Assembly (NCBI GenBank): GCA_038087875.1
Contig: CM075993.1
Coordinates: forward strand, 11,844,001-11,908,000
DNA: 64,000 nt
Reading direction: 5' to 3'
DNA from: Malacoraja senta
Taxonomy: Eukaryota
Part shown: positions 8,763-42,472 of the stretch, piece by piece
Position numbering within the stretch: position 1 is the stretch's first letter
How the letters are laid out: each line of letters begins with the position of its first letter
Position numbers and translations under genes: made by a program
Notes under the pieces: generated by a model
Seen by the model: the letters and a program-made list of their open reading frames with translations, nothing else
What the model was told of the DNA's origin: nothing
The model's database searches: none

Positions 8763-11700
8763 TCCAAGATATCCTGAAAGGGCAGGGAGAGGAGCCCGAG
8801 GTCGTGGTACATATAGGTACCAATGACATAGGTAAAAAAAGAGAAGAGGTCCTGAAAGGAGAATTTAGGGAGTTAGGAGGGGAGTTAAAGAGAAGGACAG
8901 CAAAGGTAACAATCTCGGGATTACTGCCTGTGCCACGCGACAGTGAGAGTAGGAATGGAGCGAGGTGGAGGATAAATGCGTGGCTGAAGGACTGGTGCAG
9001 AAGGCAGGGATTCAAATTTCTGGATCATTGGGACCTCTTTTGTGGAAGGTTCGACCTGTACAAAAAGGATGGGTTGAACTTGAACCTGAGGGGGACTGAT
9101 ATCCTGGCGGGGAGATCGGCAAAGGCTACTGGGGAGACTTTAAACTAGAATGGTTGGGGGGAGGGACTCAAATAGAGAAATCTATTAGACAGTGTGTGAG
9201 GCAGGAGGCAGAGAAGGAAAGCACTCAGACCCAACATGTAGGGGGGGAAGAAGAAAACAATAATAAACAGAGAATAAGAGGTGGTGGGGTTCTTAAATGG
9301 GTGAGCAGAGAAACAGAGGGGTGTAAAATGCGGGCGGAAGCAATAGGTAGCAAGGTGAAAAGTAAAAGTGGCAGGCAGACAAATCCAGGGCAAAAATCAA
9401 AAAGGGCCACTTTTCAACATAATTGTATAAGGGGTAAGAGCGTTGTAAAAACAAGCCTGAAGGCTTTGTGCCTCAATGCAAGGAGCATTCGTAATAAGGT
9501 GGATGAGTTGAACGTGCAGATAGCAATTAATGATTATGATATAGTTGGGATCACGGAGACATAGCTCCAGGGTGACCAAGGCTGGGAGCTGAACATCCAG
9601 GGATATTCAATATTCAGGAGGGATAGAGAGAAAGGAAAAGGAGGTGGGGTAGCGTTGCTGGTTAGAGAGGAGATTAACGCAGTGGAAAGGAAGGACATTA
9701 GCTTGGAGGATGTGGAATCGGTATGGGTAGAGCTGCGAAACACTAAGGGACAGAAAACGCTGGTGGGTGTTGTGTACAGGCCACCTAGCAGTAGTAGTGA
9801 AGTTGGGGATGGCATCAAACAGGAAATTAGAAATGCGTGCAACAAAGGCAAAACAGTTATAATGGGTGACTTCAATCTACATATAGATTGGGTGAATCAA
9901 ATTGGCAGGGGTGCTGAGGAAGAGGATTTCTTGGAATGTATGCGAGATAGTTATCTAAACCAACATGTAGAGGAACCAACGAGAGAGCAGGCTATTCTAG
10001 ACTGGGTATTGAGTAATGAGGAAGGGTTAGTTAGCAGTCTTGTTGTGCGTGCCCCCTTGGGCAAGAGTGACCATAATATGGTTGAGTTCTTCATTAGGAT
10101 GGAGAGTGACATTGTTAATTCAGAAACAACGGTTCTGAACTTAAAGAAAGGTAACTTTGAGGGTATGAGACGTGAATTGGCCAAGATTGACTGGCAATTA
10201 GTTCTAAAAGGGTTGACGGTGCATATGCAATGGAAGGCATTTAAAGACTGCATGGATGAACTACAAAAATTGTTCATCCCAGTTTGGCAAAAGAATAAAT
10301 CAGGGAAGGTAGTGCATCCGTGGATAACAAGGGAAATCAGGGATAGTATCAAACCAAAAGATGATGCGTACAAATTAGCCAGAAAAAGCAGCATACCAGA
10401 GGACTGGGAGAAATTCAGAGACCAGCAGAGGAGGACAAAGGGCTTAATTAGGAAAGGGAAAATAGATTATGAAAGGAAACTGGCAGGGAACATAAAAACT
10501 GACTGCAAAAGTTTTTATAGATATGTGAAGAGAAAGATATTAGTTAAAACAAATGTAGGTCCCTTGCAGTCAGAAACAGGTGAATTGATCATGGGGAACA
10601 AGGATATGGCGGACCAATTGAATAACTACTTTGGTTCCGTCTTCACTAAGGAAGACATAAATAATCTGCCGGAAATAGCAGGGGGCCGCGGGTCAAAGGA
10701 GATGGAGGAACTGAGTGAAATCCAGGTTAGTCGGGAAGTGGTGTTGGGTAAATTGAATGGATTAAAGGCCGATAAATCACCAGGGCCAGATAGGCTGCAT
10801 CCCAGAGTACTTAAGGAATTAGCTCCAGAAATAGTGGATGGATTAGTGATCATTTTTCAAAACTCTTTAGATTCTGGAGTAGTTCCTGAGGATTGGAGGG
10901 TAGCAAACGTAACCCCACTTTTTAAGAAGGGAGGGAGAGAGAAAACGGGGAATTACAGACCAGTTAGTCTAACATCGGTAGTGGGGAAACTGTTAGAGCC
11001 ACTTATTAAAGATGGGATAGCAGCACATTTGGAAAGTGGTGAAATCATTGGACAAAGTCAGCATGGATTTACGAAAGGTAAATCGTGTCTGACGAATCTT
11101 ATAGAATTTTTCGAGGATGTAACGAGTAGAGTGGATAGGGGGAAACCAGTGGATGTGTTGTATCTGGACTTTCAGAAGGCTTTCGACAAGGTACCACATA
11201 AGAGATTAGGATACAAACTTAAATCACACGGTATTGGGGGTTCAGTATTGATGTGGATAGAGAACTGGCTGGCAAACAGGAAGCAAAGAGTAGGAGTAAA
11301 CGGGTCCTTTTCACAATGGCAGGCAGTGACTAGTGGGGTACCGCAAGGCTCAGTGCTGGGACCCAAGCTATTTACAATTTATATTAATGAACTGGATGAG
11401 GGAATTGAAAGCAACATCTCCAAGTTTGCGGATGACACTAAGCTGGGGGGCAGTGTTAGTTGTGAGGAGGATGCTAGGAGACTGCAAGGTGACTTGGATA
11501 GGCTGAGTGAGTGGGCAAATGTTTGGCAGATGCAGTATAATGTGGATAAATGTGAGGTTATCCACTTTGGTGGCAAAAACGGGAAGGCAGACTATTGTCT
11601 AAATGGTGGCCGATTAGGAAATGGGGAGATGCAGCGAGACCTGGGTGTCATGGTACACCAGTCATTGAAAGTAGGCATGCAGGTGCAGCAGGCAGTGAAG

Positions 11701-12356
11701 AAAGCGAATGGTATGTTGACTTTCATAGCAAGAGGATTTGAGTATAGGAGCAGGGAGGTTCTACTGCAGTTGTACAGGGTCTTGGTGAGACCACACCTGG
11801 AGTATTGCGTACAGTTTTGGTCTCCAAATCTGAGGAAGGACATTATAGCCATAGAGGGAGTGCAGAGAAGGTTCACCAGACTGATTCCTGGGATGTCAGG
11901 ACTTTCATATGAAGAAAGACTGGATAGACTTGGCTTATACTCGCTAGAATTTAGGAGATTGAGAGGGGATCTTATAGAAACGTACAAAATTCTTATGGGG
12001 TTGGACAGGCTAGATGCAGGAAGATTGTTCCCGATGTTGGGGAAGTCCAGGACAAGGGGTCACAGCTTAAGGATAAGGGGGAAATCCTTTAAGACCGAGA
12101 TGAGGAAAAACTTTTTCAGACAGAGAGTGGTGAATCTCTGGAACTCTCTGCCACAGAGGGTAGTTGAGGCCAGTTCATTGGCTATATTTAAGAGGGAGTT
12201 AGATGTGGCCCTTGTGGCTAAGGGGATCAGGGGGTATGGAGAGAAGGCAGGTACGGGATACTGAGTTGGATGATCAACCATGATCATATTGAATGGCGGT
12301 GCAGGCTCGAAGGGCCGAATGGCCTACTCCTGCACCTATTTTCTATGTATCTATGT
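8763..12356 (+). mobile_element. CR1-clade LINE, young, 5'-truncated in ORF1
   Basis: ORF1 SGNH-esterase part (VVVHIGTNDIG..ISGLLPVPR..DGLNL). ORF2 has APE (LNARSIRNK, GITET, MGDFN, SDHN) and RT ([22 protein letters not shown]). One TAG at 9562-9564 replaces the W of ETW. CTATGT-type tail; candidate TSD aacaatg at 8756-8762 and 12357-12363. Confidence 0.95.
9655..12264 (+). CDS. CR1 ORF2 endonuclease/reverse transcriptase, open portion
   Basis: 869-aa ORF in frame with the upstream 9154-9564 ORF. Confidence 0.9.
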   Translation: MLVREEINAVERKDISLEDVESVWVELRNTKGQKTLVGVVYRPPSSSSEVGDGIKQEIRNACNKGKTVIMGDFNLHIDWVNQIGRGAEEEDFLECMRDSYLNQHVEEPTREQAILDWVLSNEEGLVSSLVVRAPLGKSDHNMVEFFIRMESDIVNSETTVLNLKKGNFEGMRRELAKIDWQLVLKGLTVHMQWKAFKDCMDELQKLFIPVWQKNKSGKVVHPWITREIRDSIKPKDDAYKLARKSSIPEDWEKFRDQQRRTKGLIRKGKIDYERKLAGNIKTDCKSFYRYVKRKILVKTNVGPLQSETGELIMGNKDMADQLNNYFGSVFTKEDINNLPEIAGGRGSKEMEELSEIQVSREVVLGKLNGLKADKSPGPDRLHPRVLKELAPEIVDGLVIIFQNSLDSGVVPEDWRVANVTPLFKKGGREKTGNYRPVSLTSVVGKLLEPLIKDGIAAHLESGEIIGQSQHGFTKGKSCLTNLIEFFEDVTSRVDRGKPVDVLYLDFQKAFDKVPHKRLGYKLKSHGIGGSVLMWIENWLANRKQRVGVNGSFSQWQAVTSGVPQGSVLGPKLFTIYINELDEGIESNISKFADDTKLGGSVSCEEDARRLQGDLDRLSEWANVWQMQYNVDKCEVIHFGGKNGKADYCLNGGRLGNGEMQRDLGVMVHQSLKVGMQVQQAVKKANGMLTFIARGFEYRSREVLLQLYRVLVRPHLEYCVQFWSPNLRKDIIAIEGVQRRFTRLIPGMSGLSYEERLDRLGLYSLEFRRLRGDLIETYKILMGLDRLDAGRLFPMLGKSRTRGHSLRIRGKSFKTEMRKNFFRQRVVNLWNSLPQRVVEASSLAIFKRELDVALVAKGIRGYGEKAGTGY

Positions 12357-32965: not shown

Positions 32966-34613
32966 CTAGAACAAGATAATAGACGTTAAGGTGCATGGCA
33001 TCAATGCAAGGTCCCCAAAAGATGAGCAAGAGCTATGTGAAAAATCTTAGCGCAATAATATTATACTGTCTGAAGAAGGGTTCTGACCTGAAACATCACC
33101 TATTCCTTTTCCCCAGATGCTGCCTGACCCGCTGAGTGGTTCCAGCACTTTGTGTATACCTTTAATATTATACTTCAGTCTGTTGACTAAATTTTTATAT
33201 TACAAATTAAAAGATTCTATTTAGCTCTGTGTATCATACTCAATGAGCAATCAGGGACAAATAAACCTATCCCATGTAAAAGATTTGTTACGGAACATAA
33301 TAGAAAATTAAGAATCAAAATAGTTGTGCAACATTTACTCTAGTAACAGCATTCTGAAAAAGATAGATTTGGGTGATAAATTAACCTGAAGTGATGGTGT
33401 TATTCTACTGCCTGAACAACTGAGGGTGGTGAATCTGTGGAATTCATTGCCACAGAGGCTGTGGAGACCAAGTCAATGGATATTTTAAGGTGGAGATTGA
33501 TAGGTTCCTGATTAGTATGGGTGTCAGGGGTTATGGAGAGAAGGCGGGAGAATGGGGTTGAGAGGGAGAGATAGATCAGCCATGATTCAATGGCGGAGTA
33601 GACTTGATGGGCTGAATGGCCTAATTCTGCTCCTATCACATAAACAGAAGATTAATGCACAAGAACAGTATGATGTTACATCCTTCATTTAATTTGGGTA
33701 TAATGTGAACAAGGAGTTCAATACTAAGTGGAGAGTTTGTTAAATGTGAAATGGCTGTCCCAACAATATTTCTGAACTGCTCCAAGCTTCTAGCCCCACG
33801 TCATTCCTTACAGAAAAGATTTTTTGCACATAGAGTCGCTGTCTCACAGCATCAGAGAGGCAGTAGCACTCCATGCTGGGAATTAACCATTATTAAATAT
33901 TGAAAATAATTTCTATCAAAAAGTTAATGATGAAATTATCCCCCAGAAGTTGAATTCCATTGATAGACTCAAAATGCTGGAGTAACTCAGCGGGACAGGC
34001 AGCATCTCTGGAGAGAAGGAATGGGTGACATTTCGGGTCGAGACCCTTCTTCAGGCTGATCACTTCAGTAGGGTCTTGACCCAAAACGTCATCCATTCCT
34101 TCATTCCAGAGATGCTGCCTGTCCCGCTGTTACACTCCAGCATTTCATGTCTATCTTCGGTGTAAACCAGCATCTGCAGTTCCTTCCTAAACAGTTGAGT
34201 TACATAATAGGGTTATAGATATGTGTATCACTGTTCTCTTAACATATACACAAGAGAAACTGTCCAGTATGTTATGTCAAATGTGTAGGAAGGAACTGCA
34301 GATGCTGGTTTACATCGAAGATAGACCCAAAATGCTGGAGTAACTCAGGCAGCATCTCTGGAGAGAAGGAATGGGTGACGTTTCGGGTCAAGACAGCTCT
34401 TCACTCCGAGTGAAGATGGGTCAAGATGGGTCTTAACCCAAAACGTTATCCATTCCTTCTGTCCAGAGATGCTGCCCGTTCCGCTGAGTTACTCCAGCAA
34501 TTTGGTTCTGTTATGTCAATTGTGGTACAAGTTTAAAGAGAACCATTTTTGGGAAATTTGTTCAGGGAAGGTAAAATTATTTGTACTTGGGACATGTAGA
34601 AAGTTATTCTCAC

Positions 34614-40754: not shown

Positions 40755-41986
40755 GTATCAAGATTCGAGTTACAAAGTGAAGCCCAGTTGAACAAGTGAA
40801 GTCAGAGACACAACAAACTGCAGATATAATACAATACAATACGGTTTTATTCGTCACATTGCACATAAAGTGCAAGTCAAATGAATTTGCCAGCAGCGGT
40901 ACAATGAGAAAGAACACACAAAAACACAGTAAAAATTTAACACAAACATCCACCACAGCATTCATCACTGTGGTGGAAGGCACAACATTTGGCCAGTACC
41001 CCTCCATTTTCATTTCTCCCCGTGGTCAGGACCTCAACCCTCCGCAGCCGTCGCTGCGGGCGTCCAGATGAGTGAAAGTCCAGGTAAGTCCTGAATCGGT
41101 GCCTTCCCCACTGGAGACCGCGGCTTCAGGTTGGTGTAGGCCTCAGGCCGGCGGTCGGGTGATTTAAAGTTCCCCCGCCCGCCGCAGCCAGAAGCACCGC
41201 AGACCGCAGGGCCGGCGGTCGAAGTCGAAGCTCTCCTTCAGGGATCCCCAGTGAGGGACCCCGCTCCCGATGGTAAGTCGCCACCGTGCCTGCGTTAGAA
41301 GTAGGCCGGGGTCGGCAGTCGGAGTGGGAAGCTTCTTCTTCCCCCGGGTCCCCAGAGAGGGATCCCAGGCTGAGGACACTGGCCAGCTGGAGCTCTGCAG
41401 ACCGCGGCTTCACGCTGCTGGCTCCGGCGAGCCCCAGCGAGGGGCTCGCCCGCTCCACGCCGAGAGTCCACGCTGCGCGCCCGCCGCTGATGCTGGAACA
41501 TGGAGCACAAACGCCCAGATGAAGGGTCCTGACTCAAAATGTCGACTGTCCATTTCTCTCCACAAATGCTGATTGATCTCCTCCGCAATCTTGTTTTTTA
41601 CGAGCCAGATCTTTGCATCTGCAGTTTCTTCTCTCCTGTCACTATTTGAATTTCAAGTGGTTGTGTGAAAGTGCAATGATAGCAGAAGAAAAGGCAACGC
41701 TTCCTGGACAACCTTTACAAGATAATTTCTATTGACAGAGTGATAGACATTGAGGAACATTGTCCTGTTGATGTTTAACTGCAACTACCTGATGTGCTAT
41801 CACATGACCACCAACTAAAAGCAAAAACTACAACAAGACTACTCAGTAATATGATCCACAAATACTTTGCCTCAGTTCCAAAAGTACTACTACGTGTAAC
41901 TGAGGCTATAATAAAATAGTAGGTACACAAAAATGCTGGAGAAACTCAGCGGGTGCAGCAGCATCTATGGAGCGAAGGAAACAGGT

Positions 41987-42014
41987 AACGTTTCGGGCCG
42001 AAACCCTTCTTCAG
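41987..42014 (-). ncRNA. Minimal type I hammerhead ribozyme motif, sense to VPS13C pre-mRNA
   Basis: Reverse complement reads CTGAAGA-A-GGGTT-tc-GGCCC-GAAA-CG-TT; stem II is kept through G-U pairs. Confidence 0.72.
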
Positions 42015-42472
42015 ACTATAATAAAATAGTGTTGGGGGAAATGTACTTTTCCCATGGATACCAATTATCCCATCTGTTCTGTGTAGGAAGGAACCGCAGA
42101 TGCTGGTTTATACCAAAGATAGACACAAAATGCTGGAGTGACTCAGCGGGTCAGGCAGCATCTTTGAAGAAAAAGAAATAGGCAACGTTTGGGTCGGGAC
42201 AACTTCTTCAGACATGAAACATTACCTATTAATTTCCTCTAGAGATGCTGCTTGACCCGCTGAGTCACTCCAGCATTTTGTGCCTACCCTTTTTAATTCA
42301 GCAACTTCAGATCCCTGCTCAACTCAGTATTGCAATGAGCCTTAACAAGGCGCAAGAACCATCACTAATAGTTGTTGGCCTTAATCTCAAAACTCAGTGC
42401 TTTTCCCAGTCAGATTTATGTTGCTTTCACCGTAGTTGAGGATATAAACAACTAAGAAACAGTGTATTCTAA

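Follow-up and report, generated by a model that had tools for sequence, protein, structure and literature searches.

The 64-kb stretch of Malacoraja senta DNA analysed here (the window) holds a 95-bp insertion that consists of little besides a hammerhead ribozyme core and a tail, and the question that it raises is why the insertion begins just before the core. An earlier note on this DNA had suggested, in place of random 5′ truncation, either a discrete minimal retroposed RNA or a stop of the reverse transcriptase (RT) at the ribozyme. We find that the boundary recurs across a family of stubs of a Penelope-like element (PLE), and argue that it probably marks the 5′ end of the copied RNA, from which the RT ran off.

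Target site duplications and an empty orthologous site

Positions in the element are counted along its sense strand from zero at the C of CUGA, which in the insertion (unit 1) is window position 42014 on the minus strand; features are collected in Table 1. The 15-bp direct repeat reported to flank unit 1 was confirmed as two exact copies, the sole exact 15-mer pair at 95- to 155-bp spacing in the 64-kb window. Because the final two letters of the target site duplication (TSD; minus-strand AG in the copy on the element's 5′ side) are also the element's letters at -3/-2, the 5′ end of unit 1 is placed at -1 to -3. The site was also found empty in relatives. Contigs of four runs were compared over window positions 41560-42130, where X21 had no coverage; one contig each from organisms F (run X22) and G (run X24) joins 41905 directly to 42016, so that the site is empty there with one copy of the 15-mer, and one contig from organism D (run X19) spans the insertion junction. 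With its TSD and empty orthologous site, unit 1 fits a target-primed insertion. Minus-strand VPS13-like exons lie on either side of it (50.9 kb; 30.4-31.0 kb), which makes an intronic position likely; taken singly, the insertion is a dead stub.

Table 1. Features of the two 95-bp units, in window coordinates
Feature	Position	Strand	Basis or remark
Stub insertion (unit 1), 95 bp	41921..42015	-	Positions -1..+93; by sequence, ribozyme-plus-tail end of a putative young Neptune-type PLE
Predicted minimal type I hammerhead core	41987..42014	-	Sequence compared with the description in the available text of PMC4209133
Part 3′ of the predicted cut	41921..41986	-	Ends at +93, the first of two inferred RT start sites (second at ~+129)
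TSD copy, element's 3′ side	41906..41920	+	Exact 15-mer repeat
TSD copy, element's 5′ side	42016..42030	+	Exact 15-mer repeat
Second stub (unit 2), 95 bp	33068..33162	+	From an older subfamily; start at -2; decayed palindrome in the core
TSD of unit 2 (12 bp), left copy	33056..33067	+	Exact repeat
TSD of unit 2 (12 bp), right copy	33163..33174	+	Exact repeat

The second 95-bp unit that had been noticed, with its 12-bp TSD, proved equally real. The two units share 76 identities over 99 columns and thus belong to different subfamilies, and they start at -1 and -2, respectively, relative to the C of CUGA. Of the earlier argument from a shared length and 5′ boundary, it stands that both units measure 95 bp and start near the core; since the subfamilies and the starts differ, the equal length is a match within a few-base spread.

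Several other features of the window were recorded. Two older copies of this type of element lie head to head at 42070-42290, 40 bp from the unit 1 insertion, and are also present in the organisms with the empty site; over the whole 64 kb there are 33 BLAST matches to the element family, most of them stubs of older subfamilies. The VPS13-like exon occurs twice (50867-51334 and 54815-55336, the second copy beside an N gap), possibly through assembly duplication. At 9565-12264, a frame open over 899 codons encodes an endonuclease and an RT domain and is a near-intact LINE ORF2, presumably of CR1 type.

A minimal hammerhead whose predicted cut lies inside the insertion

The predicted core is made up of CUGAAGA, an extra A, a 4-bp helix II with a UUCG loop, GAAA, a loopless 2-bp helix III and GUU, which would be the cleavage triplet, with the cut between 41987 and 41986 (+27/+28). 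Helix I needs positions -1 to -4, and its 5′ strand lies mostly outside the insert. What had been described as an intact core thus has the conserved letters and the helix II of a minimal type I hammerhead, both present in unit 1, but its helix III is two base pairs without a loop and its helix I is mostly external; in unit 2, the helix III palindrome has lost its G. The 95-mer folds no better than shuffles (z 0.11), and an Rfam scan of the 64-kb window gave no hits at gathering score. Because the predicted cut is ~30 nt downstream of the 5′ boundary, that boundary is not a ribozyme cleavage product.

The hammerheads described in the available text of PMC4209133 likewise have an extra base before helix II and a loopless palindromic helix III, and are mostly single dispersed motifs, read there as truncated PLEs; the 4-bp helix II found here is unlike that of the minimal hammerheads in the same text. 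Minimal hammerheads of metazoan PLEs are expected to need a dimer, and the text available gives no end map of single copies such as the one below (PMC4209133).

The parent is a tandem, RT-encoding element

Unit 1 is identical at 93 of 95 positions to the ribozyme-plus-tail part of a tandem parent copy, L150, whose head-to-tail unit of 3,891 bp gives an element of 3.9 kb. A genome search with the 95-mer returned at least 38 full-length matches at 100% identity among the 47 matches listed. Across the genome, exact matches number 21,662 for a 37-mer from the tail and 340 for a 33-mer just past it, which marks tail-to-ORF junctions; of 30 loci retrieved, 15 have the same 95 letters with a common pLTR running on upstream of them. 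The partial-tandem structure of pLTRs is present, in the head-to-tail unit of L150, in inverted arms and in two classes of 3′ end. The 95-bp unit is one of thousands of stub copies of this PLE.

The longest copies encode an RT and, C-terminal to it, a GIY-YIG endonuclease; the Pfam matches of L062 (RVT_1, E 7.5e-6; GIY-YIG, E 7e-4) are both below curated cut-offs, and those of L150 are weaker. Between the two domains lies a C-x4-C-x2-C linker, which agrees with the CX2-5CxxC motif in the available text of PMC8557442. This motif points to a parent of the Neptune/Nematis type, an EN+ PLE, and the Poseidon label was dropped for Neptune-type on its account. In L150 (5613-6796), the ribozyme is followed by a 41-codon ORF and then by a separate 356-codon ORF without a Pfam match, before the RT; the N-terminal region of the parent is unusually long, with variable internal repeats near +730 to +985.

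About half of the copies end at the 5′ edge of the ribozyme

From the 21,662 tail matches we took the 100 that were listed first, regardless of their 5′ ends, and mapped these ends by chained BLAST. These hits come from the opening 8.9 Mb of a single contig, and among them are paired arms and one segmental duplicate; they are not fully independent. The 3′ ends fell at +91 to +95 in 65 hits and at +123 to +133 in 30. The 5′ ends fell at -6 to +7 in 49 hits and at -15 to -7 in none, with a shoulder reaching +7; 21 others were downstream of +7 and 30 at -16 or beyond. Expressed per base, the rate of 5′ ends was 6.0% in the peak against 0.16% at -100 to -7 (a difference of ~38-fold) and ~0.5% at +8 to +54. 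When the 36 hits with an inverted arm were left out, 35 of the remaining 64 were in the peak. TSDs of at least 10 bp were found at 74 hits, 47 of them 14 to 16 bp long (a few possibly by chance). Among copies of older subfamilies retrieved as by-catch, 107 of 210 reach the core, and, judged by eye, most break off at this same point although the DNA upstream of it differs.

This plot of 5′ ends bears out the earlier view that the boundary is not that of random truncation. Such truncation, or hammerhead cleavage as the source of the end, could be read from the even spread of ends upstream of -16, from the 6 hits of 100 that end at +27 to +32 and from two arrays that start at +28, but the peak compared with -200 to -7 gives a binomial p of 1e-29 (the hits being not fully independent) and the predicted cut is ~30 nt downstream of the peak. 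We give this reading next to no credence, and for the main peak it is already refuted.

Genome-wide, exact matches to the core extended upstream numbered 17,786 at -1, 16,371 at -2, 13,305 at -3, 11,325 at -4 and 10,265 at -5 (by subtraction). The steepest fall comes from -2 to -3, which makes -2, and not the initiator A at -3, the commonest end. The count falls from 10,265 at -5 to 6,883 at -9; this drop was rejected as evidence for ends, since long copies belonging to sister subfamilies made up about half of the 20 copies sampled from this class.

The adjacent inverted arms, seen in 36 of the 100 hits (L031-L119), typically form pairs in which the end of one arm is close to +93 and that of its partner close to +129; a single TSD surrounds the pair, a pattern as expected if both strands were primed.

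A separate SINE-like element of 95 nt, with its own master gene and RNA, might explain why tail matches number 21,662 and tail-to-ORF junctions 340, and why 19 of 23 simple TSD-flanked short copies measure 88-98 bp. The identical 95-mer also ends long copies in 15 of 30 loci, however, both ends vary, with two sites at the 3′ end, every subfamily has its own stubs, and no diagnostic sequence was seen. A lineage apart from the autonomous partner did not emerge, the 95-mer being identical in long and short copies. The discrete minimal element envisaged in the earlier note, with a master of its own, is therefore very improbable.

Read-through and permuted copies point to the template

Loci extending past the tail (30 + 40 + 8 tandem loci) were drawn from the first 100 listed of the 340 junctions, mostly in list order. 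Left out of the counts were L156 (a duplicate of L150), the array-internal L215-L223 and L226-L236, the rearranged L210/L211, L241, L242 and L255, and L256/L265 (start at +198/+189, with no jump). The sequence continues into the ORF in 29 copies; 24 of these reach +7, 2 of the 24 stop at -6 to +7, and 22 pass the ribozyme. Another 20 loci are permuted: their sequence sets out from an RT start site, reaches a 5′ point and there resumes from further along the RNA. This 5′ point lies at -3/-4 in six loci, at +4 in one, at +28 in two (ambiguous by 1 base in one of them) and at -35 to -328 in 11. The six -3/-4 copies resume from +219 to +283 or from +858, with a G directly before the restart in five and an A/T-rich linker in five, and their second pass ends at -6 to +7 in 5/6, compared with 2/24 of the ORF read-through copies (Fisher p 0.0008).

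These copies bear on the proposed stop at the ribozyme. If the RT stalled or aborted at a folded or protein-bound ribozyme soon after priming, the peak would be expected at the 5′ edge of the fold, where it is; the predicted fold of the longer-tail RNA pairs +1 to +7 with the tail end (z -1.8), and short restart duplications, 3-4 in the 100-hit sample, have 82 exact matches genome-wide. Yet the ORF read-through copies pass this same ribozyme in nearly all cases, and the late second pass of permuted copies ends at the same place, which argues for the template rather than early abortion. An RT stop is accordingly disfavoured, with a rather small chance of being correct. Splicing was rejected as a source of the restart duplications, whose junction letters are unlike a GT-AG cut.

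Alternatively, the RNA end near -3 may be real but processed, by 5′-to-3′ decay halting at a protein-bound ribozyme or by a splice-acceptor-like event at the pyrimidine tract and CAG. Processing is consistent with the raggedness of the ends between -4 and +7 and with the weak G signal seen genome-wide; the tract and CAG are kept in long copies of several subfamilies, and a D. virilis intron ends at helix I according to the available text of PMC4209133. Against it, G directly precedes the restart in five of six jump junctions, three junctions retain the CAG that splicing would remove, and no common upstream exon was seen among the extras of the junctions examined. We consider processing unlikely, with a small but real chance.

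Run-off at a transcription start as the probable origin of the stub

The reading that we prefer, and hold to be probable, is that the stub is made by an RT that primes inside the RNA at +93 and runs off at a transcription start 2-4 bases before the core. Internal priming at two sites has been shown in vitro for an anole element (PMC11167929), and by likeness to it reverse transcription here would prime at +93 or +129 and run off the RNA 5′ end near -4 to -2. A Penelope pLTR contains a promoter (PMC2377424; PMC3846280), and the promoter of this pLTR may start at the initiator-like TCAGTCT. Many of the RNAs would end early (+190 to +283), sometimes with an A-tail, and the short cDNA would be integrated as is, joined head-to-head with a second, or jump to the RNA 3′ end; RNAs that start further upstream would give rise to the long copies. 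TCAGTCT at the boundary fits the initiator consensus. TCAGT is also constrained as part of helix I, and it resembles a 3′ splice site, which counts against a start at this place.

For L1, an untemplated G has been taken as a possible trace of the cap (PMC9341517). For simple insertions, G was found at -4 in 38 of the first 100 of 1,980 listed (background 40%, p 0.68), and at -5 the G:A ratio was 35:26 in the first 100 of 1,060 listed (p 0.02), a weak signal. As DNA proxies for a capped start, then, G occurs at 5/6 jump junctions and the genome-wide G test is negative at -4 and weak at -5. Since 11 of 20 permuted copies ran off further upstream, at -35 to -328, starts would be dispersed, and since only 2 of 24 complete copies end at the proposed start, a second RNA pool must be assumed. 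Secondary run-off points recur upstream of the ribozyme, at -35/-36 in L259, L267 and L277 and at -181 to -186 in L268, L272 and L274, and are possibly minor transcription starts. In view of the G test, the modal end at -2 and the few full-length ends, we put the transcription start no higher than probable and leave to a processed end and an RT stall, taken together, a chance that should be reckoned with.

Tandem arrays

Some copies of the family form arrays. L214-L224 (G000:C1:27.817 Mb) comprises 11 matches with a 138-bp period and a unit of +28 to +165, 10/10 full units being identical; L279 (G000:C1:381.27 Mb) comprises four matches at 165 bp with a unit of +28 to +192. Both begin at the predicted hammerhead cut, without the core, and may be fossils of cleavage by the minimal hammerhead in vivo. 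Other arrays keep the whole ribozyme (-129 to +262, 13 matches; -52 to +222, 10 matches; -36 to +219; -35 to +225), several with a TSD. Tandem repeats with a hammerhead in each unit, as in retrozymes, are found in L225-L237, L259, L277 and L278, which measure 254-384 bp, come from the element 5′ region and each have their own junction; the 95-bp unit is single and flanked by a TSD. Further pairs at C1:247.04 Mb, C2:45.75 Mb and C2:79.14 Mb were grouped with the retrozyme-like arrays.

The arrays would arise by rolling-circle or repeated-jump copying; they may instead come from later tandem expansion, or their copy number may be inflated by assembly. Animal non-LTR retrozymes, as described in the available text of a preprint (bioRxiv 10.64898/2026.07.22.740005), are PLE-derived and hammerhead-bearing, and five arrays or repeats with a ribozyme found here are similar to them, unlike the 95-bp unit, which is a single copy. 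That preprint proposes later local amplification; because the present arrays start at an RT start site and several carry a TSD, birth at insertion is suggested here.

Comparison with known elements and meaning

The element type, the tail, the inversion and the ribozyme are already in print. Neptune/Nematis PLEs in the available text of PMC8557442 have the same order of RT and GIY-YIG, the CX2-5CxxC linker, head-to-tail tandems, an inverted 5′ copy, an optional 30-40-bp tail, frequent 5′ truncation and a pLTR hammerhead; 5′ truncation is described there without a fixed end, whereas about half of the copies here end within 14 bases at the ribozyme 5′ edge. The anole Poseidon element PAc, which belongs to another clade, is alike in that its tail is set by two internal RT start sites, cutting and extension take place on both strands, and the main insertions are uncut at the ribozyme (PMC11167929). 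That paper's main text reports neither a peak of 5′ ends nor reads at the cleavage site, although its supplementary Fig. S2 (genomic coverage) may bear on this; here we see a peak and two arrays at the predicted cut. At the level of titles and abstracts, a scope mostly outside subscription papers, we found no report of a fixed 5′ end of PLE stubs, to which the same Fig. S2 may be relevant.

In retroviral minus-strand strong-stop synthesis, priming near the RNA 5′ end yields a short cDNA that must jump to continue. The run-off model differs in that priming would be at the chromosomal target, without a tRNA primer, and in that the short product would itself be integrated. We tentatively propose, as a possibility that falls somewhat short of probable, that PLEs make strong-stop-style cDNA at the target: priming ~95-130 nt from a capped start would yield a stub, a head-to-head joint or a jump to the RNA 3′ end, repeated jumps or circles would yield retrozyme-like arrays in one insertion event, and the +28 arrays would be genomic fossils of in vivo cutting.

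How PLEs copy themselves, and whether the minimal ribozyme cuts in cells, are described as open in the available texts of PMC11167929 and PMC4209133. The run-off reading predicts RNA 5′ ends at -4 to -2 and +28, and RNA 3′ ends near +190 to +283. The value of the locus lies in the family-wide pattern and not in the single insertion: a very young family of >21,000 copies keeps a record of the points at which reverse transcription begins, halts and jumps, and its common stop before the ribozyme hints at the copying mode of a poorly understood class of elements.
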